A stretch of 64,000 bases of DNA from an uncultured Spirochaetota bacterium (lineage in GTDB: Bacteria > Spirochaetota > Brevinematia > Brevinematales > JAOACQ01), in NCBI GenBank assembly GCA_963783575.1, contig CAWAOD010000010.1, positions 32,001-96,000 on the forward strand. Reading direction: 5' to 3'. Within the stretch, counting starts at the first letter, position 1, and each line of letters begins with the position of its first letter. Below the pieces are notes generated by a model. That model had not been told where the DNA came from and ran no database searches. It worked only from the letters and a program-made list of their open reading frames with translations. This document shows, piece by piece, positions 32,930-54,335 of this stretch. The position numbers and the translations under genes are program-made.

Positions 32930-32938
32930 ATCCATAAC

Positions 32939-34337: not shown

Positions 34338-34344
34338 AATAGAT

Positions 34345-34390: not shown

Positions 34391-34481
34391 TCGGATAAAA
34401 AAAGTTATACTCTTTTGAAAAATTAAACTTCAGTATATTTTCATAGAATTTAAAAATGATTTTTTGGATAGGAGGAGAATT

Positions 34482-36068
34482 ATGAACGGAAAAAAAATAG
34501 TATTAGTATCGGGTATGGTTTTTATGCTGGGCTTTTTGCTCTATTCATGTTCCACAACACCAGCCAGCAATAGCAGCAACAGTTCCAATAACAGCAAAAG
34601 TAGCAGCACGTCAAGCCAGGTAAGCTCAACTGGCAGCATGTCAAGCCAGGCAAGTTCAAGCAGCAGCATCGCTTCCCTGGCTCCCGTAATTTATGTAGCA
34701 GCGACCGGCAACGATACGAACAGCGGAACGAATGCTTCCGGTCCGCTTATGACCATCCAGGCCGGCGTCAGCGAGGCCGCGGCTCTGGGCTCAACCAACA
34801 TCTATGTCGCCGCCGGTGTTTACCTGCCGGGCAGTGGCTTGAATTCGACCGTAAACGGCTTGCTGATATCGAACAATAACATCAATCTCCTCGGCGGTTT
34901 TTCACCCGGTTTCACAAGCCGCACCGGAAAAAGCGAATTGAACGGCACCAACGGCATTTATCATATTATCATGATCTCGAACGCGCAGTATGTCAGGATC
35001 GACGGGTTTATCCTGGAAAACGGAAAATCGGTCGGCGTCGGGCCGAATGGCCTCGCCGGCGGTTTATATATGAATAATGCCGGTAACTGCATAATAAGCA
35101 ATACTGTGATCAGCAATAATTACGGAACAGGCGGCTGGGGAGGAGGGGTTACTCTCGACGGTTCATACCAAAACAGCATCATCGCCGTAATAGCTGGTAA
35201 CAATGTCAACGGTTACGGCGGCGGCATGTTCATTAACAATGGTTCGGGCAATTTTATCGATTGCGATTTCATATCGAATATCGGCCAGCAGGGAGCCGGC
35301 GGCCTCTTTCTGAATACTGGCGTCAATAACGTCATCTGCGGCACTTTCATCGGCAATAACGGAGGCACGGGTTCTTATACCGGCGGCGGAATCTATTGCT
35401 ACGGGAACAATAATACTGTCTCCAACGTGGTCATACAGGGAAACAGCGCAGGTTACGGAGGTGGAATATACTTCGATACGGGCGCCAATAACTGCATGGT
35501 TTACGGCGGGACGATCGCCAGCAATACCGCAGATAGCGGCAACGGCGGCGGGATATACTGCAACAGCCGGAGCCTGTTCGTTACCAATACGGCAATCTTA
35601 TACAACATTGCGCAGGCCCGCGGTGGCGGTTTATATTTCGACAGCCAGGCCTCAAACTGCACCGTCATCGGAGGGCAAATTATCGGCAATTCCGCTGTCA
35701 CCAGTTATGGAGGCGCGATTTATCATTATTGTGATACAAATATCCAGGTCAGGGATTCTGTTATCACGAATAACGCGGACGGAAACGCCGGAATAATCTG
35801 TCTTTATACGACAGGATATATTATGCTTTCGAACTGCATGATAGGCGGAACCAATAATTATAACGGTTTCGGGATATTCGAGACCGGCGGCGATTCAACC
35901 GGCCAGACCCTGCTGAACAATATCTTCCTTACCAATACTATTCCATCTTATCTTTATCATGACGTTAATAACGGTTCTATATCGACTGGAGCCGACTGGA
36001 CCAATATCAATGTTGCCGGTTTCACCGGCGCGGCAGCCGCCGGAGGAAATATAATGACAAATTTATAA
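34482..36068 (+). CDS. Surface lipoprotein with right-handed beta-helix (DUF1565-like)
   Basis: Start after GGAGG; lipobox LLYSC; Ser-rich linker; YVAATGNDTNSG; GGG[ILM]Y repeats; paralogous to the C-terminal part of 29282-32929. Confidence 0.8.
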   Translation: MNGKKIVLVSGMVFMLGFLLYSCSTTPASNSSNSSNNSKSSSTSSQVSSTGSMSSQASSSSSIASLAPVIYVAATGNDTNSGTNASGPLMTIQAGVSEAAALGSTNIYVAAGVYLPGSGLNSTVNGLLISNNNINLLGGFSPGFTSRTGKSELNGTNGIYHIIMISNAQYVRIDGFILENGKSVGVGPNGLAGGLYMNNAGNCIISNTVISNNYGTGGWGGGVTLDGSYQNSIIAVIAGNNVNGYGGGMFINNGSGNFIDCDFISNIGQQGAGGLFLNTGVNNVICGTFIGNNGGTGSYTGGGIYCYGNNNTVSNVVIQGNSAGYGGGIYFDTGANNCMVYGGTIASNTADSGNGGGIYCNSRSLFVTNTAILYNIAQARGGGLYFDSQASNCTVIGGQIIGNSAVTSYGGAIYHYCDTNIQVRDSVITNNADGNAGIICLYTTGYIMLSNCMIGGTNNYNGFGIFETGGDSTGQTLLNNIFLTNTIPSYLYHDVNNGSISTGADWTNINVAGFTGAAAAGGNIMTNL

Positions 36069-38443: not shown

Positions 38444-38597
38444 ATGAAAATTGATAATACATTTTTTCTCATTGGAAGAATAAAGGAACATTATAAGGCT
38501 TTTCTTGAAAAAGAATTAAAAAAGAGAGGGATGAAGAATCTCGTTACTTCTCATGCCGATATTATTGTTGCGCTTAAAATATGCGGAGAACTAACCC
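38444..38597 (+). pseudogene. MarR-family regulator truncated by IS21
   Basis: FLEKELKKRGMKNLVTSHADIIVAL..GELT then IS end; the 3' part is not found on the far side of the IS. Confidence 0.75.
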
Positions 38598-38740
38598 TGT
38601 GGAAATGTCAAGAGTTTTTCCCATATCTGCGCTCGGGTAATTTCCCACCCCTTCCACAAGAGTATTTCCCATATGCTTCACAAGAGTTTTCCCCATACCT
38701 TCCACGTGAGTATTTCCCATAGTGAGGAGGCAAAGAATGG

Positions 38741-39490
38741 TTACTCAACCTCCTTATTCAAATTTTGTATTCTGTAAGATTCTCCGCTCAAGTTATAAAT
38801 ATTTGAATGATGTAAAAGCCTATCCAGAAGAGCGGTTGTCATAATCGGGTCTCCCATCATTTCAGCCCAATCCTGAAATCCCTTATTCGATGTTATCACA
38901 ATTGATGTCTTTTCATACAATTCACTTACAAGACTAAAGAATAGATTTGCCTCCTTCTTTTCGATAGGTGTGTAACCTATCTCATCAATGATTAATAAGT
39001 GTGACTTCATCATCCGGTTCAGCCTGAAAGCAGAGCTTCTCTGGATGTCCGCCGTTTTCAGAAACTTAATGAGAGTAGTCATCCTTTCAAAGCAGACAAT
39101 ATATCCCTTTTCAACTGCCCGGATTCCGATACTAATTGCCAGATGCGTTTTCCCCAGCCCCGGAGACCCAAAGAACAACAGGTTATGATGATTATCAATC
39201 CAGCAGAAATCCAATAGCTGTGAAACATCCATTTTAGATATTCCATTCACTTTTTCAAAATTAAAACCTTCCACATCTTTGCGGACCGGGAAGTGTGCTC
39301 CTGCCATATTCCGCTGAAAACGTTTTTCCACTCTATAATTCAATTCCAGAGAAAGCAGCCTCTGCAGAAAACTCAGATAAGACTCTTTTGCCTTTTCAGC
39401 CTCACCAATTTCCTCATCAATCCGTTTTATCATACCCTTCAACCCGAGAGTTGTAAGCGCAGTTATGATTTGTTCTCTTATCTTCAACAT
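38741..39490 (-). CDS. istB: IS21 helper ATPase
   Basis: GSPGLGKT, LIIDEIGY, LDRLLHH. Confidence 0.95.
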   Translation of the reverse strand: MLKIREQIITALTTLGLKGMIKRIDEEIGEAEKAKESYLSFLQRLLSLELNYRVEKRFQRNMAGAHFPVRKDVEGFNFEKVNGISKMDVSQLLDFCWIDNHHNLLFFGSPGLGKTHLAISIGIRAVEKGYIVCFERMTTLIKFLKTADIQRSSAFRLNRMMKSHLLIIDEIGYTPIEKKEANLFFSLVSELYEKTSIVITSNKGFQDWAEMMGDPIMTTALLDRLLHHSNIYNLSGESYRIQNLNKEVE

Positions 39491-41037
39491 TGCCGGCCCC
39501 CGATGGAGTCACAGAAACTCTGGTATTTCCCGATGTCTGATTTAGCTACTTCAAGATAGTGTTCAGGATTCACTGAAGGCCTGACAATCTTTTCAACATT
39601 CAAGGGTATTTCTGCCTTTTCTGTTATAAAACAGTTCAGGTAATTATCCCACAAATCCTTCATGGAATAACTATCACTCTCCAGGCAGTTTGAGATCGCT
39701 TGTGTAAGCTTCCCGGTATCAATTATCTTGTCCCTGAAGTATTTTCTTCCGGAAAGACATTGGTCCCTTACATAACGATTGAACTTCCTGAAATTACATT
39801 CAAGAAAATCCTTCCAGCCGGGAATATCAAAGTACCCGCTTACTTCTTCTTTCAATAACTGCACACTCTTTCCCATTTCCCGGATCATTGCCCTGTTGGT
39901 TACAATCTGCCCCGGAATCACTGAAAGCCGGTATTCGGCGATTTGCTCTCCCGTTATCCTGTCAAAGACAAAAAGCCGACTGCCCGTCTTGTAGATGTCC
40001 ACCGAACCGTTCCTGTATTTTTCGGGAATATCATACTGGCTTGCATCAACTGCGATCCGGCATTTATCGCTTACACTGCGCTCTTCCCTTGCTCCTATCC
40101 TGTCTTTACGGAATATCGAATTCCTGACAGATTGGAGATATGGTCTTTCCGTTTCAATCTCTATCAGTGGTATTTTCATTGTAGCCTGGGATATTCTCCC
40201 GTTGGCTTTTCTTTCCAGCCATTTCATCAGGCTTTCTTCCGCTTCCATTAAACTGTTGAACTCCCGGACTGAGAAGAAACCGTGCTTGATGAATTTGACT
40301 ACGTTTTCAATCTTTCCCTTACTTTCCGGGTCAGCAGGTCGGCACACATACATTTTAAGACCCATTTCCCCGATGAAATACTGAAAGTCTTTCGTGTAGA
40401 TGATATCGCCTGAGTTCTCACTCGCAACCATCGTGCAGTCCTGATCGATGACAAGTTCATGCGGTATCCCGCCCATATATGCGAAACAGTCCAACAGATG
40501 ATTGATAAGGTCTTCTGTCCGGAATGGCCTCTCCTGGAGGGCCGCATACTTAAAACGACTGGCGGATAACACCGCGGCAAATATGTAATACCTTCTGCCA
40601 TATCTGTCGGTATATTGACCGAAATCAAGCTGGAGCTGCTTTCCATATGGCATGTCAGGCACTTTTGTGTAATACCGTCGCTTTTCATTCAAGGTAAGCT
40701 GCCCGCTTTCAATCAGGTAATGTACGAAATTCCTCATCGTATTTTCATTCGCCGGTAGTTTGCCTTTTACCTCCAATAAATAGTCATACAAAGCAGACAT
40801 ATTCAGCCGGATGTAATCATTCTTTGCATATACTTTCAATATGTCTGTTTTTATTCCTTCGAATTCTTTTTCACGGAAAGAGAATTCCATCAGGCTTTTC
40901 TGGTATTCGGAATCGTTCATAGCCCAATATTTTCGGACTGTCTTAATATCTATTGACAGTTCCCGGGATACACCATTTTTACTTTTCCCCAAAAGTTTCA
41001 GTTTTTTTATGTCCTGATACATAATATTTTTCACCAT
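39484..41037 (-). CDS. istA: IS21 transposase
   Basis: QLDFG, SRFKY, DQD, PESKGKIE. Confidence 0.95.
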   Translation of the reverse strand: MVKNIMYQDIKKLKLLGKSKNGVSRELSIDIKTVRKYWAMNDSEYQKSLMEFSFREKEFEGIKTDILKVYAKNDYIRLNMSALYDYLLEVKGKLPANENTMRNFVHYLIESGQLTLNEKRRYYTKVPDMPYGKQLQLDFGQYTDRYGRRYYIFAAVLSASRFKYAALQERPFRTEDLINHLLDCFAYMGGIPHELVIDQDCTMVASENSGDIIYTKDFQYFIGEMGLKMYVCRPADPESKGKIENVVKFIKHGFFSVREFNSLMEAEESLMKWLERKANGRISQATMKIPLIEIETERPYLQSVRNSIFRKDRIGAREERSVSDKCRIAVDASQYDIPEKYRNGSVDIYKTGSRLFVFDRITGEQIAEYRLSVIPGQIVTNRAMIREMGKSVQLLKEEVSGYFDIPGWKDFLECNFRKFNRYVRDQCLSGRKYFRDKIIDTGKLTQAISNCLESDSYSMKDLWDNYLNCFITEKAEIPLNVEKIVRPSVNPEHYLEVAKSDIGKYQSFCDSIGGRQC

Positions 41038-41163
41038 TCCTGCCTTCCTTTAATGAATTTTCATTAAAGTTTAACTTCTATTTCCCCCTATGGGAAATCT
41101 GTTTGTGACAGGTATGGGAATTTCATTTATTGCTACCCTGGTAAATTAGTTTATCATTTCCAC

Positions 41164-41413
41164 GTAAACGGAGAAGAAGAAAAAGTTTTTCCTGCGCTCC
41201 TCGGGTTCGCCCAAGAACAGCAAGGAGAAAAGCTACGGCTGCGGTGCTCAGGCTTCGCCACATTTGCCTTTGGCATCTTTTTTGCTAATTTTGAAAATTA
41301 ATGAAAAGGGTTATGAAATGAAATGCTTTCAAATATTTAAAAGCCGGTTCTGGAATTGCAAAAAAGACGCCAATCGTTAACGCGAACGGCAAACGTCGCC
41401 AAGCCGCACCGTT
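41164..41413 (+). repeat. attC-like inter-cassette repeat 1 (5'-truncated by IS21; hybrid of type A and type B)
   Basis: Starts mid-repeat with type-A sequence (AGTTTTTCCTGCGCTCCTCGGGTTCGCCC), continues with type-B core, ends AGCCGCACC-GTT. Confidence 0.8.
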
Positions 41414-41480
41414 AGCTGAAATGTGCGGGAAAATGAATATTTATAAATCGCAGCATCCTTGCTGCGAAAAAGGAGCGAAT

Positions 41481-42710
41481 ATGTATAATAACAAAGAAAA
41501 TGGTACTTTTCATACAGGTGATTTCGTCAGTTATAACGCATGCGTTGGATATAATGGAACAAACGATCTTGAAACATATGAAATTGGATATGATATTGCA
41601 GTAAAGCAATTAATTAATTCGACTAAGTCTAGCCATATTCCAGTTGATGCTATTATTTATCCTATTGCATTTTGTGCCAGACAAAAGCTTGAATTATTTT
41701 TAAAAGATATGATTAAACATTTAGGCTATATTAAATATCTTATAAATAACTGTGAGAAAGAAAACTTAAAGTTAAAACATGAATTAGATAAATTATTTCA
41801 AAAGTTTTCAGAATTGACTCTTATTGATTCAAGATGCCAAAAAGATATAACTATAATAGAAAAATTTGTGAAAGATTTTCATGATATTGATCCAACAGGA
41901 CAAACATTTAGATATCCAGAAAGTACAGAAAATACTCAACATTTAATAGATTTATCATGTATTAATATTATTGACTTTGAAAAAATATACATTCCTTTTA
42001 GTGCATATTGTGAAAAATTTAGAGTTATGATTGAATTTTTAATTGAAGAATACATACAAAAAACTTTTATTGATGGTGTATCAAGAAATGATATTTTTGA
42101 AATTTCAAAAATGCTTCCTCAAAGATATGATTGGGGTAAACCTGAATTTTTGGTTATAAAGAAACAGATTATGGAAAAATTCAAAATTAGCTCAAATAAA
42201 TTTTCAAAAGTTTTAAATATTATACAAAAACATACTTATTTTTCATTAAATATTGGAATTGAAAATAAAATAAAAACTATATCAAGTTCAGAATTCAACA
42301 ATTATTTGGGATTATACTCGGATTTTATTAAGAGAATTGAAAATGAGTCATTTAATAAAGTTCAAAATGAAATTTCAAACAAAATAATTAAATTATTACC
42401 TAAAAAAGTAATTTATTCTTTATGTTCTTTGAAAGAAATTGGAAATCAAAATTTATATCCTGAATATCATGAGCAATTATTCACATATTATTCAAAATTA
42501 AATTTATTTTCTATTGTATTTGATAGATTAGTTAGGACCGGTTATCTTCTGTTTTATCTTAAAAAAGGTTTATTAGCTTGTGGGCAAAAAACTTTATTAG
42601 AGGAATTGGAGCAATTTGTAAAGAGTAATCCACATTTATTAGACAGTTATGATATCAGTAGACGGCCTGCCATTACAGAAGTTGATTTCAATGAATTATT
42701 TAAAAAATAA
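41481..42710 (+). CDS. Hypothetical cassette protein, possibly HEPN-like fold
   Basis: AAGGAG RBS before 41481; YPIAFCARQKLELFLK...KHEL...DPTGQTFRYP. Confidence 0.6.
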   Translation: MYNNKENGTFHTGDFVSYNACVGYNGTNDLETYEIGYDIAVKQLINSTKSSHIPVDAIIYPIAFCARQKLELFLKDMIKHLGYIKYLINNCEKENLKLKHELDKLFQKFSELTLIDSRCQKDITIIEKFVKDFHDIDPTGQTFRYPESTENTQHLIDLSCINIIDFEKIYIPFSAYCEKFRVMIEFLIEEYIQKTFIDGVSRNDIFEISKMLPQRYDWGKPEFLVIKKQIMEKFKISSNKFSKVLNIIQKHTYFSLNIGIENKIKTISSSEFNNYLGLYSDFIKRIENESFNKVQNEISNKIIKLLPKKVIYSLCSLKEIGNQNLYPEYHEQLFTYYSKLNLFSIVFDRLVRTGYLLFYLKKGLLACGQKTLLEELEQFVKSNPHLLDSYDISRRPAITEVDFNELFKK

Positions 42711-42773
42711 CTGTGTTATAACAACGCCATCCTTGGCTTTGCTAGTTGTGCCGACTTCCCGCACCCTTCAGCT

Positions 42774-43016
42774 AACAGCGGCTATATCGCTCCGGTGCTC
42801 GAAAAAACTTTTCAGGGCGTAACGGAGGAGAAGAGAAAAGTTTTTCCTGCGCTCCTCGGGTTCGCCCGTTTTTGATTTTGTAAAAAGAGAAAGGAGTTCA
42901 ACTTGACTATGATGATTATTAAAATAGAAGTCATTATTTACGGGCTCACCACATTTTCGGGCCTAAGAGCGCGGGGCTAGCTCTAAGGCCCGAAAACGTC
43001 GTATAGCCGCACCGTT
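42774..43016 (+). repeat. attC-like repeat 2 (type A, 243 bp)
   Basis: AAC-AGCGGCTATA ... TATAGCCGC-ACC-GTT terminal stem. Confidence 0.9.
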
Positions 43017-43069
43017 CTACGCCATTACGGGCACAAGCTTGTTTTAAAAAAAAAGTGAGGTTAAATAAT

Positions 43070-43648
43070 ATGGAAAAAAAGAAGAATATCTATCAATTGA
43101 AAATCAATTTAATGGATACAAAACCACCAATTTGGAGAAGAATTTTAGTTGAATCAAATGTAAAATTACCTGATTTACATAAAATTATTCAATCAACAAT
43201 GGGCTGGACGAACTCACATTTGCATGATTTTATCATTAATGGAATGACTTACACATTGCCTGATGAAGACAATGAATTGGAATATATAGATTACAGAAAA
43301 ATAAAATTAAATAAACTAATTGAAAATGAAGGTGCAAAATTCAACTATATTTATGATTTTGGTGATGATTGGAACCACAAAATTGAACTTGAAGAAATAT
43401 TGCCATATGATTCTGCTAGAAAATATCCTATATGTATAGCTGGAAAAAGAAGATGTCCACCAGAAGATTGTGGTGGGACAGGTGGTTTTGAAGACTTACT
43501 TAAAATTATTAAAGATCCAAAAAATGAAGAATATGAAGATATGATGAATTGGTTACCTGATAATTTTGATCCTGAACATTTTAATATAAATGAAATAAAT
43601 GAATTATTACAAAAAAAGGATTATGGTTGCATAACAATTTATGATTAA
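43070..43648 (+). CDS. Plasmid pRiA4b ORF-3 family protein
   Basis: PPIWRRI, GW.NSHLH, YDFGDDW, CPPEDCGG. Confidence 0.9.
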   Translation: MEKKKNIYQLKINLMDTKPPIWRRILVESNVKLPDLHKIIQSTMGWTNSHLHDFIINGMTYTLPDEDNELEYIDYRKIKLNKLIENEGAKFNYIYDFGDDWNHKIELEEILPYDSARKYPICIAGKRRCPPEDCGGTGGFEDLLKIIKDPKNEEYEDMMNWLPDNFDPEHFNINEINELLQKKDYGCITIYD

Positions 43649-43674
43649 ACATTGTGCCCGTAACGGCGCAGAAC

Positions 43675-45468
43675 GGCCATGTAGAAAAAGTTAATTTCAG
43701 GTAATAATCCTCCATTCCCAAACAGTTTGTTTTTTTTGATCTGTCTGGAATCACTTTTTTATATAAAACCGGGCTGAATTTACCGGCAAAACTGCTTTTA
43801 TTCCATCACTATGCCATTATATACCTCCATAGACCTGAATTTTCCCGATATTGTGCACAGTATTATATAATACCCATTGAATATTCACTTTTACCTTTCC
43901 CCTCAGCGTAAATCGATCCATACCTTTACATGCCCTTATATTCCCGAATACAGGCTCAACTATAGCCATTCTTTTCGCATAAAGCTTTCTGCCTTCAGGT
44001 GTATCTATGAACTTTCTCATTTCGTCCGAGTAATGTCTGTTATCCGCATTCAATGGCCTTTGCAACATCGTGTTGCTGTCGAACTAACGTTCGACGGCCT
44101 TTTTGGCTATATAGTAGCTCTTATGGAACCTCCGTGTTCCCAAGGTTGTTTGATTTTATTTTAATTCTTCAGGAAGTCTTTCCGGAATGGACAATTACGG
44201 CAGGACAATAACCGGCAGATATACTTCGCGTATGTAATATGATTCACCGTATGGTTATTTCTGAACCGGAGTTCCTCTCCTTTCTTGCATATATAGACAT
44301 TCCTTATTGGGTCATATTGAAAATCATCGATTGTATACTGCCCTTTCTTCGCAGGCTTATGTCTGTCAGCGGTTTCAAACCTGCAATCGCGCTTCCTGAA
44401 ATTCGTATCCGGGATGACCGGTTTCATACCGTTTTGCGAAATATATTTCAGGTTCTTTTCGCTGAAATAATTGGTGTCCGCGGTGATTATTTTATCCTTT
44501 AAATCTTTTCCCAATTCTACTTTTGCTTTACGGATCATCCCTTTCAGGAATTCCCCCTCAGACCCGCTCCCAAAAGCTTCGGGATATACCACAACCTGAT
44601 ATTTCGAATCCACGACCGATAAGCCATTGTATCCCTGGATTACACCGTGCGATGATTTTATTTTCGCGCTCTGGTTATCAGTGACATTGGACTGCTTTTC
44701 ACCATGCCTTGATTTATCTTTCGGTTTTTCACTTTCCAGAAACTTTTCTATCTTTTCAGCTTTCTTTAAAATCTTCTCGATCCGTGCCAGATCTTTTTCC
44801 TTATCCTTCTCAGGAAAATCGCCGTCCTGATCACGCTTTTCATGTTCATCAAGCATTTCCTTAACCAGGTTTTCCAGCTTCTCTTTTTTCTTCTTCAAAT
44901 CCTTAAATGTTCCGCTCCATTCCTTTGATGCATTTGACGATAGTTTGCACCCGTCCAGCGCGAACATATCCCCGCCTATGAGATTCAGTTCGTCACAAAC
45001 CATCAATGTATTCAGGAATACGGTATTTATCTCATTTTTCATCGAAGAAACAAAATCGGCGATTGAAGTAAAGTGCGGTATTGAATTGGCGGAAAGGGCT
45101 TTGGCTATAATATTCGTTTTACACAAATACTCGATTTCACGTGATGTAAAAATACCGCGGGAATAGCTGTAGAGTATTATTTTGAGCATAACCCGCGGAT
45201 TATAAGCCGGGGCACCGGTAGCATCGTTCTTATACTTATTCTCAAAGATTTTAAGATCAATTCTGTTGTCAACAAGAAAACTGAGTGTATATTCGAATGT
45301 TCCCGGTATAATCTGCTCATCGAATGAGACAGGTATGAGTTCCATTTGATCGTAATTAACTTTCTTATATCTTGCCATAATTGCTTTTACCTCTTGATTT
45401 TATTTCCAATATATTTTAAAGTATATACGATATTCTGTACATGAATGACGGACTTTTTCTACAGGCTC
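43675..45468 (-). mobile_element. IS1182-family element, copy 1
   Basis: IRs GGCCATGTAGAAAAAGT / ACTTTTTCTACAGGCTC; AAC duplicated on both sides. Confidence 0.9.
43817..45378 (-). pseudogene. IS1182 transposase split into 405-aa and 83-aa ORFs
   Basis: GAPAYNP, SREIE, LDG.K, ADTNY in ORF1; RMAIVEPVFGNI in ORF2. Confidence 0.8.
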
Positions 45469-45685
45469 AACAAGGCATAGCTGTTGCGCTCCGTCCTCAC
45501 TAGCGTTCCGGGCGGTGCTCAGCCTTCGGCACATTTGCCTTTGTCATCTTTTTTGCAGAATTTGAAATTTAATGAAAAGGGTTATAAAAATGAAATACTT
45601 TATTATATTTAAAGTCTGGTTCTGGAATTGCAAAAAAGACACCAATCGCTAACGCGACCGGCAAACGTCAGCTATGCCTGCCGTT
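45469..45685 (+). repeat. attC-like repeat 3 (type B, 217 bp)
   Basis: AAC-AAGGCATAGCTG ... CAGCTATGCCT-GCC-GTT. Confidence 0.85.
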
Positions 45686-45727
45686 AAACGAAAGGCATGG
45701 CAGACTTTAATTATAAAGAGGTATTTT

Positions 45728-46957
45728 ATGAAAAATTTTATGATTATTTATGCACTACTTATGATATCAATTTTTTCTAATTTCATTTATTCAAATGATA
45801 TCCTGAATCAAACTAACAAATTTCCTTCAAATATTTTAGATTTTTATCTTAACCTCCCTAATGAACCTTTATTAGGTGATGTAGGTACAGATATTCAAAA
45901 TAGAATTGATTATTTAACTAATAATAATAACCATGATTCTTATTCACCAATAATAATTGATATAAAAAATGGATTTATTTCAATGAGATCTGAAATCAAT
46001 CATAATTATTTTATATTGAATGAATATGCTTTATTTACAACTAAAAATTTAAAATACATAGCTTGTGTTTTTAGGATGAACGATGCTGAATTTCCAGGCT
46101 ATATTATTTCCAATACTTTTATTATTTATCAATTCACAAATAATAATTTCATAGATGTAACAAAAGCTGTATTTCCAAGAATAGAATATTCTATGTTTTT
46201 TGATGATTTCGACATGAAAGGTAAGTATCTTTCAAATATACCAAATGATAAAATTTTCTATAAATTGCCTAGGTTTGGAACAAAGATTGAAGCAAATATT
46301 GAAATAAGTGAATTAACAACCCAAAGAAATTATGATTGGTCAGAGCTATATCTTGCATTTAAAACTAACAAAATAAATATTGATTTTAATTCAAAAAGTG
46401 GAGAATTTTATATAGTAAAATCAAAAGAGCAAAAGTATTTCAAGAATAATGATGAAATAGCATTATATTCTTGTAAAAATTATGTAAATATCATCAAACC
46501 AATAGAAGAAATAATTTCCTCAACATCAAATTTTAACTTTCATAATAAATTACCTGTTAATAATGTATATGAAGCATATTTTAGTAAAAGTGTATATGTA
46601 AGAATTGAAATAGAACCTTTTGATTCAAAAAATAAAGTATATACAAATGATCATGATTATAAAGATTTTGTAAATGGTGAGCGTATTTTCGGTTGTAACT
46701 TAGATAAACCTTTTCATGAATTTAAATCAGCAGACTTGTTTTATGACAATAAAAAATTTACAATTCCTACTAAGAATTTATATAATCCTTTTTCAATTAA
46801 TGGAAAAAATTGTATTAAATTTCTTAAAATTAAAGATGATTTTTATATTCTTGGTGATTTCTCAGATGGTGCTGGTGCTTATTCAATTTTATGGAAATTA
46901 TATGAGAATAAAATTTCTATAATAAAAATATTCAATTTATATGGTGATTTATTTTAG
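45728..46957 (+). CDS. Secreted hypothetical cassette protein
   Basis: GAGG RBS; signal peptide MKNFMIIYALLMISIFSNFIYS; YKLPRFGT; FSDGAGAY. Confidence 0.75.
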   Translation: MKNFMIIYALLMISIFSNFIYSNDILNQTNKFPSNILDFYLNLPNEPLLGDVGTDIQNRIDYLTNNNNHDSYSPIIIDIKNGFISMRSEINHNYFILNEYALFTTKNLKYIACVFRMNDAEFPGYIISNTFIIYQFTNNNFIDVTKAVFPRIEYSMFFDDFDMKGKYLSNIPNDKIFYKLPRFGTKIEANIEISELTTQRNYDWSELYLAFKTNKINIDFNSKSGEFYIVKSKEQKYFKNNDEIALYSCKNYVNIIKPIEEIISSTSNFNFHNKLPVNNVYEAYFSKSVYVRIEIEPFDSKNKVYTNDHDYKDFVNGERIFGCNLDKPFHEFKSADLFYDNKKFTIPTKNLYNPFSINGKNCIKFLKIKDDFYILGDFSDGAGAYSILWKLYENKISIIKIFNLYGDLF

Positions 46958-46992
46958 CCACTTAATGTTTGATACTGCCAGGCCCTTCGTTT

Positions 46993-47232
46993 AACCGTGG
47001 CTATATCGCTCCGGTGCTCGAAAAAACTTTTCAGGGCGTATGGAAATGTCAAGAGTTTTTCCTGCGCTCCTCGGGTTCGCCCGTTTTAGATTTTGGTAAA
47101 AAGAGAAAGGAGTTCAAATTGACTATGATGATTAATAAAATAAAGGTCATTATTTACGGGCTCACCAAACCCGTAAACCTAAGCGCGCGGGGCTGGCGCT
47201 AAGGTTTGCGGGCTTCGTATAGCCTCACCGTT
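46993..47232 (+). repeat. attC-like repeat 4 (type A variant, 240 bp)
   Basis: AAC-CGTGGCTATA ... TATAGCCTC-ACC-GTT. Confidence 0.9.
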
Positions 47233-47261
47233 ATATGCAATGCTGGCTGCACGGATTATTC

Positions 47262-47290
47262 TTGACAATATGGCTGATTGTATGTATTAT
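47262..47290 (+). promoter_or_regulatory. Sigma70 promoter of the brnTA cassette
   Basis: TTGACA-17 bp-TATTAT; ATG 7 nt downstream, no RBS. Confidence 0.75.
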
Positions 47291-47297
47291 TATATGT

Positions 47298-47573
47298 ATG
47301 ATATTTGAATGGGATGAAAATAAAAACAAAACTAACATTGAAAAACATAATATTTCTTTTGATTATGCCCAGCTTGCATTTCTTGATGATAAAAGAATTA
47401 TTGCGGAAGACTTGAAACATAGTGATACTGATGAAAAACGTTACTTTTGCTTTGGAAAAATAGATGATACAATCATTACTGTTAGATTTACTTACAGAAA
47501 AAATAGAATAAGAATATTCGGAGCTGGTGCATGGCGAGAAGGAAGGAGGATATATGAACAAGAAAACAATTAA
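47298..47573 (+). CDS. BrnT-family toxin (DUF497)
   Basis: MIFEWDENKN..NIEKH.ISF; HS..E.R; VRFT.R..IRI. Confidence 0.9.
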   Translation: MIFEWDENKNKTNIEKHNISFDYAQLAFLDDKRIIAEDLKHSDTDEKRYFCFGKIDDTIITVRFTYRKNRIRIFGAGAWREGRRIYEQENN

Positions 47574-47811
47574 ATATACTAAAGCACCAAAAGAAATATC
47601 TGATGCCATTAACAATTCAATAATAATAAAGGATTTCTTACCATCTCCTAAAGAACTGATACTTAAAGAAAAAACAAAAAAAATTACTATTAATTTAAGT
47701 GAAAAAAGTTTAATTTTTTTCAAAAATTCTGCTAAAAAAAATCATGTTTCATATCAACAAATGATTAAAGAAATTCTTGATAAATATTCAGATTATTATA
47801 AATACAATTAA
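47554..47811 (+). CDS. CopG/BrnA-like antitoxin
   Basis: Overlaps the toxin; GGAGG RBS; KITINL...FFK..A...SYQQMI RHH-like. Confidence 0.8.
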   Translation: MNKKTIKYTKAPKEISDAINNSIIIKDFLPSPKELILKEKTKKITINLSEKSLIFFKNSAKKNHVSYQQMIKEILDKYSDYYKYN

Positions 47812-47833
47812 AGAGTGCAGCCAAACTGCGTAT

Positions 47834-48076
47834 ATCAGCGGCTATATCGCTCCGGTGCTCGAAAAAACTTTTCAGGGCATAACGAAGAAGAAGAAAAAGT
47901 TTTTCCTGCGCTCCTCGGGTTCGCCCGTTTTAGATTTTGGTAAAAAGAGAAAGGAGTTCAAATTGACTATGATGATTAATAAAATAAAGGTCATTATTTA
48001 CGGGCTCACCACATTTTCGGGCCTAAGAGCGCGGGGCTAGCTCTAAGGTCCGAAAACGTCGTATAGCCACACCGTT
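47834..48076 (+). repeat. attC-like repeat 5 (type A, 243 bp; AAC changed to ATC)
   Basis: ATC-AGCGGCTATA ... TATAGCCAC-ACC-GTT; near-identical to repeat 2. Confidence 0.9.
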
Positions 48077-48115
48077 GTACGCAAGTCTGGCCGCAGCTTT
48101 TATTTATACTAACTA

Positions 48116-48144
48116 TTGACATTAGTAACTATATATGTTAGTAT
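48116..48144 (+). promoter_or_regulatory. Sigma70 promoter of the higBA cassette
   Basis: TTGACA-17 bp-TAGTAT; ATG at 48150; ATACTAAC/GTTAGTAT inverted repeat overlaps it. Confidence 0.7.
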
Positions 48145-48149
48145 TATAT

Positions 48150-48431
48150 ATGATAAAGTCTTTTAAAGATGACGAAACGAGTTTAATTTGGTTTGGTATT
48201 AAATCAAGAAAATTACCACCAAATATTCAAGATGTTGCTCGACGAAAATTAAGAATGCTTAATAATGCTCATGCTTTATCTGATTTATTAATACCACCAT
48301 CAAATAAATTAGAATCTTTAAAAGGAAATAGAAAAGGTCAACATAGCATTAGAATAAATGATAAATATAGAATTTGTTTCATTTGGAAATCTAATGATGC
48401 CTATAGTGTTGAAATTATTGATTATCATTAA
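48150..48431 (+). CDS. higB: HigB (RelE/ParE-family) toxin
   Basis: MIKSF; PPSNKLE.L.G.RKGQHSIRINDKYRICF; VEIIDYH. Confidence 0.9.
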   Translation: MIKSFKDDETSLIWFGIKSRKLPPNIQDVARRKLRMLNNAHALSDLLIPPSNKLESLKGNRKGQHSIRINDKYRICFIWKSNDAYSVEIIDYH

Positions 48432-48449
48432 ATATTAAAGAGGTAAAAT

Positions 48450-48761
48450 ATGACTGAAAGATTAAAAAACATACATCCTGGTGAAATCTTAAAAGAAGAA
48501 TTTTTATTGCCTTTAAATATTACAGCTTATAGACTATCAAAAGAAACAGGCATACCGCAAACGGCAATATCTGAAATAGTAAAAGAAAAAAGAAGAATCA
48601 CTGCACCTGTAGCCTTAAAATTCTCAAAATTTTTTGGTACTACTCCTCAATTTTGGTTAGGTCTTCAAGATGATTATGATCTAGAAGAGGAAGAAATCCA
48701 TATAAAAAAAGAATTGGATAATATTCATTCAATAAAAGACTTACATTTAGTTAATGCCTAA
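48450..48761 (+). CDS. higA: HigA antitoxin
   Basis: IHPGEILKEEFL; FWLGLQ..YDL. Confidence 0.9.
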   Translation: MTERLKNIHPGEILKEEFLLPLNITAYRLSKETGIPQTAISEIVKEKRRITAPVALKFSKFFGTTPQFWLGLQDDYDLEEEEIHIKKELDNIHSIKDLHLVNA

Positions 48762-48793
48762 TTCTAGAACTTGCTGCACCGCCATCGCCTAAC

Positions 48794-50588
48794 GGCCATG
48801 TAGAAAAAGTTAATTTCAGGTAATAATCCTCCCTTTCCAAACAGTATGTTTTTTTTGATCTGTCTGGAATTACTTTATTTTTATAAAACCGGGCTGAATT
48901 TACCGGCAAAACTGTTTTTATTCCATCACTATGCCATTATATCCCTCCATAGACCTGAATTTTCCCGATATTATGCACAGTATTATATAATACCCATTGA
49001 ATATTCACTTTTCCCTTTCCCCTCAGCGTAAATCGATCCATACCTTTACATGCCCTTATATTCCCGAATACAGGCTCAACTATAGCCATTCTTTTCGCAT
49101 AAAGCTTTCTGCCTTCAGGCGTATCTATGAACTTTCTCATTTCGTCCGAGTAATGTCTGTTATCCGCATTCAACGGCCTTTGCAACATCGTGTTGCTGTC
49201 GAACTAACGTTCGACGGCCTTTTTGGCTATATAGTAGCTCTTATGGAACCTCCGTGTTCCCAAGGTTGTTTGATTTTATTTTAATTCTTCAGGAAGTCTT
49301 TCTGGAATGGACAATTACGGCAGGCCGATAACCGGCAGATATACTTCGCGTATGTAATATGATTCACCGTATGGTTATTTCTGAACCGGAGTTCCTCTCC
49401 TTTCTTGCATATATAGACATTCCTTATTGGGTCATATTGAAAATCATCGATTGTATACTGCCCTTTCTTCGCAGGCTTATGTCTGTCAGCGGTTTCAAAC
49501 CTGCAATCGCGCTTCCTGAAATTCGTATCCGGGATGACCGGTTTCATACCGTTTTGCGAAATATATTTCAGGTTCTTTTCGCTGAAATAATTGGTGTCCG
49601 CAGTGATTATTTTATCCTTTAAATCTTTTCCCAATTCTACTTTTGCTTTACGGATCATCCCTTTCAGGAATTCCCCCTCAGACCCGCTCCCAAAAGCTTC
49701 GGGATATACCACAACCTGATATTTCGAATCCACGACCGATAAGCCATTGTATCCCTGGATTACACCGTGCGATGATTTTATTTTCGCGCTCTGGTTATCA
49801 GTGACATTGGACTGCTTTTCACCATGCCTTGATTTATCTTTCGGTTTTTCACTTTCCAGAAACTTTTCTATCTTTTCAGCTTTCTTTAAAATCTTCTCGA
49901 TCCGTGCCAGATCTTTTTCCTTATCCTTCTCAGGAAAACCGCCGTCCTGATCACGCTTTTCATGTTCATCAAGCATTTCCTTAACCAGGTTTTCCAGCTT
50001 CTCTTTTTTCTTCTTCAAATCCTTAAATGTTCCGCTCCATTCCTTTGATGCATTTGACGATAGTTTGCACCCGTCCAGCGCGAACATATCCCCGCCTATG
50101 AGATTCAGTTCGTCACAAACCATCAATATATTCAGGAATACGGTATTTATCTCATTTTTCATCGAAGAAACAAAATCGGCGATTGAAGTAAATTGCGGTA
50201 TTGAATTGGCGGAAATGGCTTTGGCTATAATATTCGTTTTACACAAATATTCGATTTCACGTGATGTAAAAATGCCGCGGGAATAGCTGTAGAGTATTAT
50301 CTTCAGCATAACCCGCGGATTATAAGCCGGGGCACCGGTAGCATCGTTCTTATACTTATTCTCAAAGATTTTAAGATCAATTCTGCTGTCAACAAGAAAA
50401 CTGAGTGTATATTCAAATGTTCCCGGTATAATCTGCTCATCGAATGAGACAGGTATGAGTTCCATTTGATCGTAATTAACTTTCTTATATCTTGCCATAT
50501 TTTCTTCTCCGACTTGATTTTATTTACAATATATTTTAAAGTATATACGATATTCTGTACATGAATGACGGACTTTTTCTACAGGCTC
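48794..50588 (-). mobile_element. IS1182-family element, copy 2
   Basis: Same IRs as copy 1; AAC duplicated; scattered SNPs relative to copy 1. Confidence 0.9.
48937..50498 (-). pseudogene. IS1182 transposase, same split as copy 1
   Basis: ORFs 49281-50498 and 48937-49188. Confidence 0.8.
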
Positions 50589-50771
50589 AACAACAGCTAT
50601 ACCGCTGCGGTGCTCGACTCCCCTGGCACTACGTCTGTGCTCCTCGGGTGCAGCTAGTTTTTTGTATAAAAAGTAAAATGGGGTTAAAATTATTTATGAT
50701 TATAATTAAAGAGAATACTTTGGTAAAAGAGGCTGCACTAAGCCTCACGGGCTTCGTATAGCCGCACCGTT
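50589..50771 (+). repeat. attC-like repeat 6 (divergent type C, 183 bp)
   Basis: AAC-AACAGCTATAC ... GTATAGCCGC-ACC-GTT; shares GGTGCTCGA, GCTCCTCGGGT and GGGCTTCGTATAG modules with type A. Confidence 0.8.
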
Positions 50772-50801
50772 GTACGAAAGAATAAAGCAAGGGGTAAATA
50801 T

Positions 50802-51707
50802 ATGGAAGTTATTGATGAAATAAAAACTTTAATGTTTAATAAAAATTGGAAAATTAAAATTTTATCTATTTAATATTTAAATAATTTAAAAGATAATTTG
50901 GAAAAAAATTTCAAGGTACTGGAAAATAAAGAGTTTGTTGATTATATCAGTAAATGTTTTAGTTTTAATTCCAAAGAAATAGTAAATTATGCAAAGTCAC
51001 TAATTATTATTGCGATACCGAGCCCAATAATATCTATCACTGTAATTTGGAATAATATTGAGAAAAAAATAATTATTCCACCAGCATATATCAATATGCG
51101 TTCGGCAATTGAAGAAGCGGAGATATTATTATCGAATATATTAAATAAAAATAATCATAGTATAAAAAGAGTTGCAATACCTGAAAAATTATTAGCAGTT
51201 CATAGTGGTTTGGGAAAATATGGTAAAAATAATATATGCTATATTGAAGGGATGGGTAGTTTTTTCAGATTAGTCTCATTTATAAGTAATATTCAAGAGA
51301 TTAATTCTGATTGGGATGATATTAATATTATGGAATCATGCAGCAAATGTAATATCTGCTTAAAAAGATGCCCAACTGGTGCGATTAGAGAAGATAGATA
51401 CTTAATCGATGGCTATAAATGCCTGACATTTTTTAATGAAAGACCAGGGGAATTTCCTAAATGGATAGATAATTCAGCTCATCACTGTCTGGTTGGTTGT
51501 TTATTCTGCCAGGATAAGTGTCCACAAAATAAAAAAGTTATAAATAATATAAATGAATGTGAATTCTTCAGTGAAAGAGAATTAATAGCAATTATGAATA
51601 TAAAAGAATTTGAGAAATTGGATATAAATATAAGGTTCAAATTAATAAAATTGAATATGGATGTATACTATAATGTCTTATCGAGGAATTTAAAAGTATT
51701 ATTATGA
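50802..51707 (+). CDS. Epoxyqueuosine reductase (QueG)-like 4Fe-4S protein with in-frame TAA at 50871
   Basis: SGLGKYGKNNI; CSKCNICLKRCP; GCLFCQDKCP; ATG 50802 is in frame with ORF 50898-51707. Confidence 0.75.
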
Positions 51708-51730
51708 AAATGCCCCGCCCATCGTACAAC

Positions 51731-51842
51731 GGCCTTGTAGAAAAAGTTAATTTCAGGTAATAATCCTCCCTTTCCAAACAGTATGTTTTTTATCGATCTG
51801 TCCGGAATCACTTTTTTATATAAAATCGGGCTTAATTTACCG
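51731..51842 (-). mobile_element. IS1182 terminal fragment
   Basis: GGCCTTGTAGAAAAAGTT directly after AAC; matches the first ~110 bp of the full copies. Confidence 0.85.
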
Positions 51843-52047
51843 CATTTTGCCGATAAAAAGGGTGGAATACTGCCTTGTCAGCTTATAAAAGGAGAATTTC
51901 GGAGTGTTTTTATAATTCTTCAATCAAATTTTAGTTTGACATACCTATTGGGACGGGATATAATGAATTTGGATGTAAAAGATGCCCCAAATGCATCAAA
52001 ATGAAAAGCCATTTGGGAAATATCAGATAAAATGAGGAGGAAGAACC

Positions 52048-52362
52048 ATGAAATGGTACCATTATTTAGCTTGTTTCTTTGCAGGTATGTTTCTTGTGAA
52101 TACCGTACCGCATTTTATTCATGGGGTATCAGGCGAGTTATTTCCTACACCATTCGCAAATCCACCAGGGAAGGGGCTTTCATCACCAACAATAAATATT
52201 CTTTGGGCACTTGTAAATCTTGTGGTTGGATATATTCTTTTTAATATTGGCAAGGTTAACAAGCCGGATAAGTGGTGGAGCTGGCCAAGGGTCATATTTT
52301 TTGTTGGGATTATTGTAATGAGTATTATGTCAAGTTTTGCTTTCTCACAAATTAATAGGTAG
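52048..52362 (+). CDS. Hypothetical membrane protein
   Basis: GGAGG RBS; PHFIHGVSG..FPTPFANPPG; hydrophobic segments. Confidence 0.75.
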   Translation: MKWYHYLACFFAGMFLVNTVPHFIHGVSGELFPTPFANPPGKGLSSPTINILWALVNLVVGYILFNIGKVNKPDKWWSWPRVIFFVGIIVMSIMSSFAFSQINR

Positions 52363-52426
52363 GCTTTTTAACCTATTATATTGTTTCAAAAATTAAAAAG
52401 TTCATATATTAGGTGACAGTAAAGTT

Positions 52427-53188
52427 ATGTTATTTAAAAATAGTATGAGATTTATATTATTAACGCTATTTTTTATCAATGTATTAATTTCGTGCAGTAG
52501 CAAATTTATTAAAATGGATAAGACAGGCATTAGTATCAAAGAGACGGATTTAATTGACAAGCAAGAAGTAGAAAGAATAACAAAAAAGATAAATGATATC
52601 GAAGAAACATTTAATACTATATTTAAAACAAGATTACAATTTACAATTGAATTAGTTAAACAGAATGAAACAGATGCATGCATAAAAATAATAGATGGTA
52701 AGGAAGGAATACTTCTTAATGATAAATATATTAAAAATTATTTAGACACTGAGTTAGCAATAACTCTTTCGCATGAATATTTTCATATTTATCAAAATAA
52801 TAAAATACAACCTGAAAAATGGAATTATACAATTGTTCGAAGATTATATGAAGAAGGTTCGGCTTGTTTTGCTCCATCATTAATTATCAGTGGGATGGAA
52901 GATTGGAAATATATATCACCTTTTAGAAATGATAATAAAGAGTTCATAGCATTTGAAAAATATGAGGGGGAAGCAAAAGAATATATATTAACAAATTTGT
53001 ATAGTAAAGATATTGAGGTGGATAGACATTTATTTTCAGGAAATATGAATTTTTCTAAACCTTGGCCTCCAAGAATTGGATATTATTTTGGTTATAAATT
53101 AATAAAAAAAATGTATCAACAAAATGGAATGAAAGTATTTCAATTAAGTGAGTATGAAATTATTAAAGAGATTAATAATGAGTTATAG
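52427..53188 (+). CDS. Putative Zn-dependent protease lipoprotein (DUF2268-like)
   Basis: LISC lipobox; HEYFH; EEGSA; IGYYFGY. Confidence 0.7.
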   Translation: MLFKNSMRFILLTLFFINVLISCSSKFIKMDKTGISIKETDLIDKQEVERITKKINDIEETFNTIFKTRLQFTIELVKQNETDACIKIIDGKEGILLNDKYIKNYLDTELAITLSHEYFHIYQNNKIQPEKWNYTIVRRLYEEGSACFAPSLIISGMEDWKYISPFRNDNKEFIAFEKYEGEAKEYILTNLYSKDIEVDRHLFSGNMNFSKPWPPRIGYYFGYKLIKKMYQQNGMKVFQLSEYEIIKEINNEL

Positions 53189-53194
53189 AAGGCG

Positions 53195-53372
53195 CCTTCC
53201 GCGCCTCGGCATTGTGCCATATTTGCCTTTGTAACAGTTATTGCAGGTTTTGTTATTTTATAAAAAATGATATAAAATGGAATACTTTAATCTAAATGAA
53301 AGCTGGTTCTGGAATTGCAAAAAAGACAATAATCGCTGGCACGAACGGTACATTGCCAAGCTATACCGTCGC
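53195..53372 (+). repeat. Degenerate type-B attC-like repeat
   Basis: ATTTGCCTTTGT...GGTTCTGGAATTGCAAAAAAGAC...ACC-GTC (GTT changed); 5' end lost. Confidence 0.7.
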
Positions 53373-53410
53373 ACGGCATGCTATACAAATAATATAAAAG
53401 GAGAAAAATA

Positions 53411-54022
53411 ATGTTGAAAGAATATATCGCCGTTTCAATATTTAAACCATCATCTATTTATGTTAATTTATTTCATGATAAAAGAAAGGTACTAATATCC
53501 TTCTCAATGCTAATGGTATTAGGGATTCTCTATACTATAACTGTAATATTTGGTTATAAAAATGGTTTTGGTGCGATAGTTAAACCTATCTTATCAATTC
53601 CAAGTAATAAATATTATTTTTATGAAATATTTTTCGGAATTCCTGTTTTTTTTCTAATATCAATAGTTTTTGCCGGAACAAGTAGATTGTTATCAACATT
53701 ATTAGGCGGCGAAGGTTCTTTTGAGAATAATTTTGTTATTTATTGTACTTCAGCATTTATTCCAACTCTTTTAACTCTATGGTTACCAGAAACATTATTG
53801 ATTGTCTTTTTTCCGGATTTACGGGCAACTCCGCTTGACGGTTTTAAAATATTACCTGCTTATATTGATTTTATTCGACAAATATTAGGTGTGTTATGGC
53901 CGATGTTTATTTCAGTAATTGGAATCAGAGTATCGGAAAATGTAACTTACCTAAAGAGCAGTATCATTACTTTTATTTCTTTTATTTTATGTGGAATTAT
54001 TATGATAATATTTATTCGATAA
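53411..54022 (+). CDS. Yip1-like multi-pass membrane protein
   Basis: AGGAG RBS; IFKP N-terminus; LLGGEGSF; five TM segments. Confidence 0.7.
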   Translation: MLKEYIAVSIFKPSSIYVNLFHDKRKVLISFSMLMVLGILYTITVIFGYKNGFGAIVKPILSIPSNKYYFYEIFFGIPVFFLISIVFAGTSRLLSTLLGGEGSFENNFVIYCTSAFIPTLLTLWLPETLLIVFFPDLRATPLDGFKILPAYIDFIRQILGVLWPMFISVIGIRVSENVTYLKSSIITFISFILCGIIMIIFIR

Positions 54023-54050
54023 TATTATATATTGCACGCCGCCAACAACC

Positions 54051-54278
54051 ATCCCTCCATAGACCTGATTTTACCAATGGATTCGGCAGGCTCACCAAAA
54101 GTATTATACATAGTATTATAGATCATCCACTGAATATAACTTTTCCCAACTCCAATTGTTTGTAATTGACTTTCTTAAACCTTGCCATAATTGCTTTTAC
54201 CTCTTGATTTTATTTACAATATATTTTAAAGTATACACGATATTCCGTACATGCATGACGGACTTTTTCTACAGTCTC
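54051..54278 (-). mobile_element. Internally deleted IS1182 remnant
   Basis: Transposase 3' end fused to its 5' end; terminal ACTTTTTCTACAGTCTC, then AAC-AGCGGCTATA. Confidence 0.8.
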
Positions 54279-54335
54279 AACAGCGGCTATAACGCTCATA
54301 AATATCTTGTATTCTTGCTGTTATGCGGTATTTAA

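Follow-up and report, generated by a model that had tools for sequence, protein, structure and literature searches.

Among the described systems, the locus considered here most closely resembles the reverse-oriented integrons of Treponema, in which the tyrosine recombinase gene is transcribed toward attI, the recombination sites have AAC and GTT cores, and exchange occurs at G|TT (PMC3607928). The locus is a gene-cassette array in a 64,000-nucleotide (nt) stretch of DNA from an uncultured Spirochaetota bacterium (hereafter, the window; positions 32001-96000 of contig C10 of the source genome, G000). It also resembles sedentary integrons and clusters of attC sites lacking an integrase (CALINs; PMC4889954) in its toxin-antitoxin (TA) cassettes with promoter boxes and in the erosion that follows damage to the integrase; the cassettes are AT-rich (22-28% GC compared to 37-39% for the genome) and co-oriented, as in sedentary chromosomal integrons. 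Unlike sedentary integrons, the system described here combines a recombinase that lacks the IntI insertion and has a HARP-like N-terminus, a GTT arm that is 2-3 nt longer, cassette ends that pair over about 20 nt rather than 8 with a fixed mismatch at position 11, sites of 152-245 nt, and several integrase-less promoter-attI platforms in one genome.

Integron surveys take the IntI insertion as the hallmark of the integrase and rely on canonical attC models to detect the sites (PMC9668308, PMC4889954); an insertion-less cassette system would be largely missed. According to PMC8138268, the "integron-like" subgroup among simple tyrosine recombinases includes insertion-less members, which are not tied to arrays in the available passages of that paper. 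Our literature searches yielded no description of the present system; most subscription papers lie outside the collection searched.

The array in the window is a cluster of attC-type sites without a neighboring integrase, the arrangement that characterizes CALINs. Taken as a whole, the observations are best explained, with high probability in our assessment, if this region is the detached, decaying far part of an integron-like gene-cassette array. A preliminary description of the window had proposed a non-canonical cassette system; the co-oriented clusters of sites across the genome, a recombinase gene with an adjacent attI-like site on contig C5 and exchange at G|TT support that proposal. Judging from sequence, the system would function like an integron, but without the IntI insertion and without canonical attC geometry, with a predicted activity of the enzyme and a predicted role of its HARP-like module.

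Precise exchange of cassettes at G|TT

A cassette is the unit that extends from G|TT through the gene to AAC, together with the following site. We compared cognate and non-cognate pairs of ends for 30 cassettes of the source genome that were delimited by site motifs, using as the canonical control the arrays of spirochaetes with classical IntI (44 sites and 43 cassettes). At end positions 12-19, an average of 6.43 of the 8 positions match in the cognate pairs versus 2.64 in the non-cognate pairs, a total that was reached by none of 20,000 permutations; the respective values for the 43 control cassettes are 1.6 and 1.95. At positions 4-7, 3.63 of the 4 positions match in cognate pairs versus 1.96, indicating a complementary GTT core and AAC inverse core; the RRRY consensus is loose, with T at position 5 in 20 of the 30 cassettes. 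Position 11 pairs in none of the 30 cassettes and, among the cassettes of relatives (a sample of 54 sites and 72 cassettes), is a top-strand A.C, that is, a bottom-strand G.T, in 66 of 72. Wobble mismatches favor the bottom strand by 31 to 4, and a bottom-strand G.T bias is known for attC (PMC5027507). In folding models, the pairing probability of the R box is at most 0.2 in five of nine sites within arrays and at least 0.94 in all nine circularized cassettes, the bottom strand being more stable in each of the nine circles; a low folding probability has been described to reduce excision (PMC5371416).

In a relative (G011), two integrase-attI heads share 1036 identical nt and part from each other 3 nt past the G (loci L023 and L024), so that different first cassettes follow an identical attI, placing the crossover at G|TT; a 589-nt unit of one cassette plus site is found a second time, the sequences upstream having 0 nt in common. 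As judged from these comparisons, cassettes are exchanged precisely at G|TT in this relative, an outcome that the preliminary description had put forward as a test; it had also held that repeats dispersed singly through the genome would argue against cassettes, and the sites instead cluster in co-oriented arrays. In the source genome, a two-cassette block that starts 2 nt before GTT is repeated on contigs C5 and C9, its 3' end being obscured by the insertion sequence (IS) IS1182. Loci L023 and L024 also contain, across both, five copies of a 428-nt cassette without a listed open reading frame (ORF) of at least 75 amino acids (aa), some of them in tandem.

A site-linked recombinase without the IntI insertion

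No match to the tyrosine recombinase family PF00589 was found on contig C10. Among the 15 such matches in the source genome, one (C5:457129-458194) is a tyrosine recombinase gene that immediately precedes an attI-like site and 12 site matches and has the same orientation as these. By its sequence, this recombinase, without the IntI insertion and with a HARP-like module, is the only site-linked recombinase found; two separate Xer-like genes of the same genome have no downstream arrays. The preliminary description had surmised that the recombinase lies elsewhere and had suggested looking beside other copies of the repeats for a tyrosine recombinase and an attI-like site; both are present on C5, where the enzyme, now frameshifted, heads another array of the same sites.

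Homologs were identified in nine of 41 relatives (the source genome included), in 47 of 251 genomes of the phylum and in 20 of 121 genomes from the phylum of a Mangrovimonas record. The intact homologs retain the catalytic R, K, H, R, H and Y residues. The best match of the short enzyme in both sequence and structure is VchIntIA (2a3v), with which it shares an N-terminal SAM domain of the family PF13495; where VchIntIA has the insertion, the unaligned stretch is 24 residues as opposed to 66, that is, about 42 residues less. The distance between the catalytic K and H is 64-65 residues in 166 of 181 homologs versus 106 in all nine measurable IntIs. The C5 enzyme matches TIGR02249, the model whose cut-off defines classical IntI in this work, below the cut-off and in two stretches.

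Classical IntI above that cut-off was detected neither in the source genome, nor in any of 10 members of its family, nor in any of the 35 genomes of a family that carries such arrays (f15). In the sampled Spirochaetota, the short enzyme is about twice as common as classical IntI (47 versus 23 of 251 genomes), and the two co-occur in a single genome (G104). In a 25-row tree of recombinases, the classical IntIs (support 100/100) are nested within a group of short enzymes (98/96), and classical IntI may have arisen from within that group; monophyly of a single short-enzyme clade is not rejected (p-AU 0.114).

To estimate linkage with arrays, longer regions were obtained for 20 of the 52 homolog matches in the phylum and for two further loci, 18 of these 22 having at least 3 kb of downstream sequence; the loci are non-independent, three coming from G011 and several from one family. 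Chained sites follow the homolog at 12 of the 18 loci versus none of 174 array-free control windows and none of eight other recombinase loci of the source genome (the opposite strand was unusable as a control because GTT...AAC is identical on both strands). In the mainly Bacteroidota set, several loci other than those that passed the strict tests contain cassettes with shorter paired ends and the same mismatch at position 11.

Three of the compared loci have features of their own. The integrase in a Bacillota metagenome-assembled genome record (L026, 78-2150) groups with those of the source genome and G011 (99/95) and its attI is nearly identical, which points to a transfer between phyla or a binning error. 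On a Chryseobacterium plasmid (L029, 11956-25000), small genes of one orientation come after the homolog, along with an IS110 and a group II intron in reverse orientation, and a 38-nt hairpin with a GTT start and an AAC end recurs at the unit boundaries. In L072 (3109-5692), genes downstream of the homolog match models for TIR-retron and Dsr2 anti-phage systems in part, with scores well short of the cut-off.

The attI-like sites and platforms

A conserved core that ends in AG|TT lies directly after the C5 integrase, and the source genome contains five more copies without an integrase, six in all. These attI-like sites head arrays, and the core beside the short enzyme is identical to the cores that head the other arrays. 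A perfect sigma-70 box is located 140-183 nt upstream of four of the five integrase-less copies, with 0.003 expected for each; the integrase-linked copy has no perfect sigma-70 box within 260 nt. On C12 (near 23450) and C13 (near 203560, 204600 and 208470), IS1182 stubs are followed by short GC-rich segments that end in an attI-like ...CGAG|(T/A/G)T, each with a single cassette after it, possibly a further type of platform.

Fold, geometry and length of the recombination sites

A BLAST search of the genome with the repeats yielded 43 merged regions, mostly co-oriented clusters on C4, C5, C9, C10 and C16, and in every array sites and genes point in the same direction. The length of the 19 full sites of the source genome is outside the range of about 56-141 bp given for attC (PMC5371416). 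Among relatives, sites of 82-226 nt occur, so the family has no constant site length, and 11 of the 44 sites in the canonical-IntI spirochaete arrays measure 135-150 nt, so length alone is not distinguishing; the distinction lies in the geometry of the arms, in cassette ends that pair over a long stretch and in the enzyme. The offset of the GTT arm is +2 in 17 of 19 sites of the source genome and +2 to +4 in 49 of 54 sites of relatives, compared to 0 in 36 of 44 canonical sites, that is, the canonical attC geometry is not matched. The motif TATA is spaced 6 nt from the following GTT in attI, and likewise on the AAC arm when its bottom strand is read, as opposed to 8 nt on the GTT arm; a bulge in the left arm, as read from the sites, is present in 12 of the 19 sites, absent in five and unclear in two.

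The register proposed in the preliminary description, with 1 versus 3 nt between the AAC/GTT and the inner stem, holds well: 152 of 171 inner-stem cells pair in the 19 full sites, versus 18-63 when one arm is slid by 1-2 nt, and this level of pairing was reached by two of 10,000 arm shuffles. A sequence-blind genome scan for the 1/3 register gave 11 matches (eight of them these sites) versus 2-12 for ten other registers, so that the register alone is not enriched. The folding z-score is -4.5 for both window sites tested with 200 shuffles (42774 and 45469) and at most -3 in 15 of the 19 full sites (30 shuffles each). Rfam yielded a single chance-level match (23 bits versus a cut-off of 58). A search of 41 relatives for the site pattern found multiple copies only in the source genome (19) and G011 (9), with single matches at 1-2 mismatches near the control level elsewhere; the pattern is too lineage-specific to serve as a test of co-occurrence. 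The interiors of long Treponema-type attC sites look similar to these sites by eye, and a comparison of 10 of the former with the 19 gave no BLAST match with E <0.01.

In all 17 sites longer than 175 nt, the extra length is an AT-rich loop that bears a Shine-Dalgarno-like motif and, with its start codon, an ORF of 20-27 codons (mini-ORF) that ends 10-36 nt before the end of the site; neither of the 152-nt sites has this arrangement, nor does the reverse strand of any of the 17. Fourteen of the 17 sites belong to one class, and the feature is found in five largely unrelated types of insert, with shuffle rates of 2-6% each. It was detected in only one of 16 long sites of relatives and is therefore lineage-specific. 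Short ORFs within attC have been reported to relieve the block that the hairpin imposes on downstream translation (PMC8876359).

The HARP-like N-terminal module

The approximately 70 N-terminal residues of the recombinase are HARP-like: with E values of up to 0.1, the Pfam HARP model (PF07443) matches 14 of the 21 N-termini (6e-6 for the strongest), the displayed scores falling short of the Pfam cut-off, and a profile of the module matches the HARP domain of SMARCAL1 (4o66) with E 2.3e-5. The module is present one to four times in 123 of 150 representatives. An Atlas search with it gave matches under 0.9, which we regard as a lead only. In contrast to the HARP domains of SMARCAL1 and T4 UvsW, the module is fused to a recombinase, and its binding to DNA is putative.

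The window array and its decay

The organization of the array is as follows (mini-ORF coordinates are given with the sites).

38444..38599, plus strand: 5' part of a gene cut by IS21; what is probably its 3' part (MarR domain) lies beyond another IS21 copy, at G000:C5:110129
38600..41162, minus strand: IS21 (istA 39484-41037, istB 38741-39490), the rearranged junction that bounds the array
41163..41413, plus strand: 5'-truncated chimeric attC-like site, R' GTT at 41411-41413, mini-ORF 41318-41380
41411..42776, plus strand: cassette 1, hypothetical protein, ORF 41421-42710; ends pair 14/16
42774..43016, plus strand: attC-like site, 243 nt, mini-ORF 42903/42909-42980
43014..43674, plus strand: cassette 2, pRiA4b ORF3-like gene 43070-43648; ends pair 14/16
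43675..45468, minus strand: IS1182-family element directly 3' of AAC, AAC duplicated (NF033551, below cut-off)
45469..45685, plus strand: attC-like site, 217 nt, mini-ORF 45590-45652
45683..46995, plus strand: cassette 3, unknown protein with a predicted signal-peptide-like start, ORF end 46957; ends pair 14/16
46993..47232, plus strand: attC-like site, 240 nt, mini-ORF 47119/47125-47202, holding a 22-nt piece that matches an IS21 end
47230..47836, plus strand: cassette 4, brnT-brnA, promoter-like box 47262-47290; ends offset by 1 nt, ATC replaces AAC
47834..48076, plus strand: attC-like site, 243 nt, mini-ORF 47963/47969-48040
48074..48793, plus strand: cassette 5, higB-higA, promoter-like box 48116-48144; the two ends mismatched (hybrid or decayed)
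48794..50588, minus strand: second IS1182-family copy 3' of AAC, AAC duplicated
50589..50771, plus strand: attC-like site, 183 nt, mini-ORF 50696-50761; weak folding, z -1.1
50769..51730, plus strand: cassette 6, QueG-like 4Fe-4S gene, codon 23 being an in-frame stop; pairing of the ends confined to the first 9 nt
51731..51842, strand not assigned: IS1182 left-end stub 3' of AAC
52048..53188, plus strand: two genes (104-aa unknown protein; DUF2268 Zn-protease-like), perfect promoter-like box 51936-51964 upstream; cassette start lost
53195..53370, plus strand: degenerate site, 5' arm lost, GTC end
53368..54049, plus strand: degraded Yip1 cassette, gene 53411-54022
54151..54297, plus strand: IS1182 right-end stub (to 54278), then site left-arm stub (54279); array end

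The repeat coordinates of the preliminary description all hold, with refinements: the repeat at 41164 is indeed a site, but a 5'-truncated chimera with an internal AAC, IS21 ending at 41162, and intact repeats generally open with AAC, except that the 47834 site opens with ATC. The list of units lacked the two genes at 52048-53188 that precede the 53195 site, and the QueG-like unit is present but has the in-frame stop. Pfam cut-offs are passed by pRiA4b ORF3, BrnT, HigB and Yip1, and HigA is above the cut-off in NCBIfam; the BrnA and QueG labels come from scores below the cut-off. None of the eight cassette proteins searched matched PADLOC, and for the cassette 1 protein nothing was found in Pfam, NCBIfam or PADLOC, the Atlas matches being unnamed clusters.

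Mobile elements that insert into attC sites, such as the IS1111-attC group and group IIC-attC introns, do so at a fixed position of the cassette site and opposite to the cassette genes. Beyond what the preliminary description lists, the window contains two whole IS1182 copies and two stubs located exactly at the AAC of sites. In the genome, AAC precedes 18 of 20 left-end motifs and follows 9 of 9 right ends; on these counts, IS1182 targets the inverse core and in this way splits sites from cassettes, as read from the insertion points. It shares the fixed position and the orientation opposite to the cassette genes with the IS1111-attC and group IIC-attC elements and differs from them in being a DDE transposon of the IS1182 family that duplicates the 3-bp AAC; the literature listing searched contained no report of an IS1182-type element that targets cassette sites. 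Besides the copies at 43675-45468 and 48794-50588 of the window, the element, with its 3-bp duplication, occupies 18 genome positions, with many short end stubs, and there is a miniature copy of roughly 110 bp at G000:C16:118829-118937.

IS21 marks the other boundary of the array. The window IS21 has no target duplication of its own, which nine of 12 full IS21 copies have, and the 5-nt duplication that lies to its left also lies to the right of a C5 copy, upstream of which there are a tRNA-Arg gene, an attI-like site, two cassettes and a cut site. The C5 gene part after that copy matches Pfam MarR from profile position 21; no MarR match of its own was obtained for the 5' part at 38444..38599 in Pfam. 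In view of the missing duplication and the matching flank, the window array is probably the far part of that C5 array, moved by IS21-IS21 recombination or misassembly. The earlier guess that the recombinase was removed at the IS21 junction gains support, as the junction is rearranged. Elsewhere, a 22-nt stretch identical to the IS21 end (window 47041-47062) lies inside the otherwise intact 46993 site, an IS21 with a 5-nt duplication lies within a site at G000:C9:125000-127559, and the IS21 end at 38641-38721 of the window comprises three 24-nt tandem repeats, one genome copy being one unit short.

Outside the array, positions 869-22381 of the window (minus strand) encompass a polyketide synthase/nonribosomal peptide synthetase (NRPS) cluster with PfaD-like, B12 radical SAM, FkbH, acyl carrier protein malonyltransferase and acyl-CoA dehydrogenase genes; its overlapping NRPS ORFs 13407-15764 and 10721-13435 look like a single gene in two pieces. 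At 27903-36068, a gene for a LuxR/PAS seven-transmembrane regulator is duplicated at a spacing of 5.2 kb, each copy being followed by a gene for a large repeat-domain protein.

Alternative explanations

Several observations weigh against an integron-like system with this enzyme. The C5 integrase, the sole copy found in the source genome, is disrupted by frame changes at two points, around residues 111-114 and 320 in homolog numbering, and with an assembly completeness of 89.85%, a further enzyme may be absent from the assembly. Both frameshifts sit in short base runs; given that IS copies show one singleton 1-nt indel in about 34.6 kb, genuine frameshifts are more probable than errors of assembly. 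The assembly contains no other piece of integrase DNA. Among the 18 spirochaete homolog loci, five have neither chained sites nor a first cassette; only two of 20 loci in the mainly Bacteroidota set pass the strict tests; and an IS91-linked Clostridium integrase falls in the short-enzyme group. The insertion itself has been described as essential for integron function (PMC8138268, PMC9668308). With regard to the sites, the bottom strand is more stable in only 13 of the 19 when folded within arrays, and only 2-3 sites contribute two-sided changes to the inner stem. The three heads of G011 are possibly strain variants or assembly products, and the link between the window array and the C5 attI head shows only one of the two expected duplication matches, the reciprocal one failing. 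As for the HARP-like module, 27 of the 150 representatives are without it, its fold match to the UvsW N-terminus (Z 5.0, root mean square deviation 3.0, 58 residues aligned) is tied with unrelated folds, and Foldseek returned nothing at E up to 0.001.

The alternative that survives best, which we nevertheless consider unlikely, is that the short recombinase moves the cassettes as a double-strand, Xer-like enzyme, the paired ends being inverted binding sites and the hairpin secondary. The catalytic domain aligns without gaps with archaeal XerA (4a8e, 5hxy) and its best score is to the corresponding model NF040815, although the fragment stays below the cut-off (183 versus 220 bits); the cassette ends are inverted repeats of about 20 nt, and the right arm of the sites resembles the attI core. 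Two-step double-strand exchange requires a shared overlap region, however, and the bases just before GTT vary both between attI and the sites and among the sites. Furthermore, the inner stem pairs in register, with mismatches biased to G.T on one strand.

Still less probable, in our estimate, is an ordinary CALIN with long canonical attC sites, the classical IntI of which is missing from the assembly and in which the short recombinase is a bystander. The incomplete assembly leaves room for such a gene, canonical reverse-oriented Treponema integrons exist (PMC3607928) and canonical arrays include 135-150-nt sites, and the AAC/GTT cores and TA cassettes are those of integrons. The distribution of the enzymes speaks to the contrary, with no IntI above the TIGR02249 cut-off in the source genome, its family or f15 and an overlap with the short enzyme in G104 only, as do the site geometry and cassette ends, which are unlike the canonical control, and the identity of the attI-like core beside the short enzyme to those heading other arrays.

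That the repeats are elements similar to miniature inverted-repeat transposable elements or repetitive extragenic palindromes, or IS debris in an AT-rich island, rather than a cassette system, is very improbable even though the region is full of IS21 and IS1182 pieces and the 43 matching regions include short fragments that lie apart from the main arrays: sites and genes have one orientation within each array, the flanks of a gene pair with each other and not with those of other genes, arrays begin at attI-like sites, exchange is exact at G|TT, and IS1182 follows the sites at both of its ends.

Proposed mechanism and implications

For the integron-like system with the insertion-less enzyme, we propose that the enzyme works as IntI does, cutting the folded bottom strand and exchanging one strand with double-stranded attI, with replication resolving the junction. 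It would, however, read a different hairpin, with an AAC arm of attI-like spacing and a GTT arm lengthened by 2-3 nt next to the cut, the body below being branched; the HARP module may take the place of the I2 insertion in binding this hairpin. The paired ends could clamp the fold only after excision, which would favor insertion over excision, and the mini-ORF in long sites might load ribosomes through the hairpin, thereby relieving polarity. One integrase would have served several promoter-attI platforms in trans; in the source genome, it is now frameshifted, with IS1182 and IS21 apparently eroding the arrays.

We lean, by a modest degree, toward the broader view that these arrays represent a second, widespread class of integrons, with an insertion-less recombinase that carries one to four HARP-like junction-binding modules, folded single-stranded sites of a different geometry, terminal repeats of ~20 nt by which the fold is locked once a circle has been excised, and a single enzyme for several stand-alone promoter-attI platforms. 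If this is true, the counts of integrons in spirochaetes and Bacteroidota change, and an unmined pool of cassettes opens. Tyrosine recombinases would then have two ways of reading folded single-stranded DNA, and the short enzymes would be a candidate for a pre-IntI stage. Finally, the way cassettes are made has been described as largely unknown (PMC5371416), and the long, cassette-specific paired ends, a signal much larger than the classical 7-8 nt, bear on the question of cassette origin.

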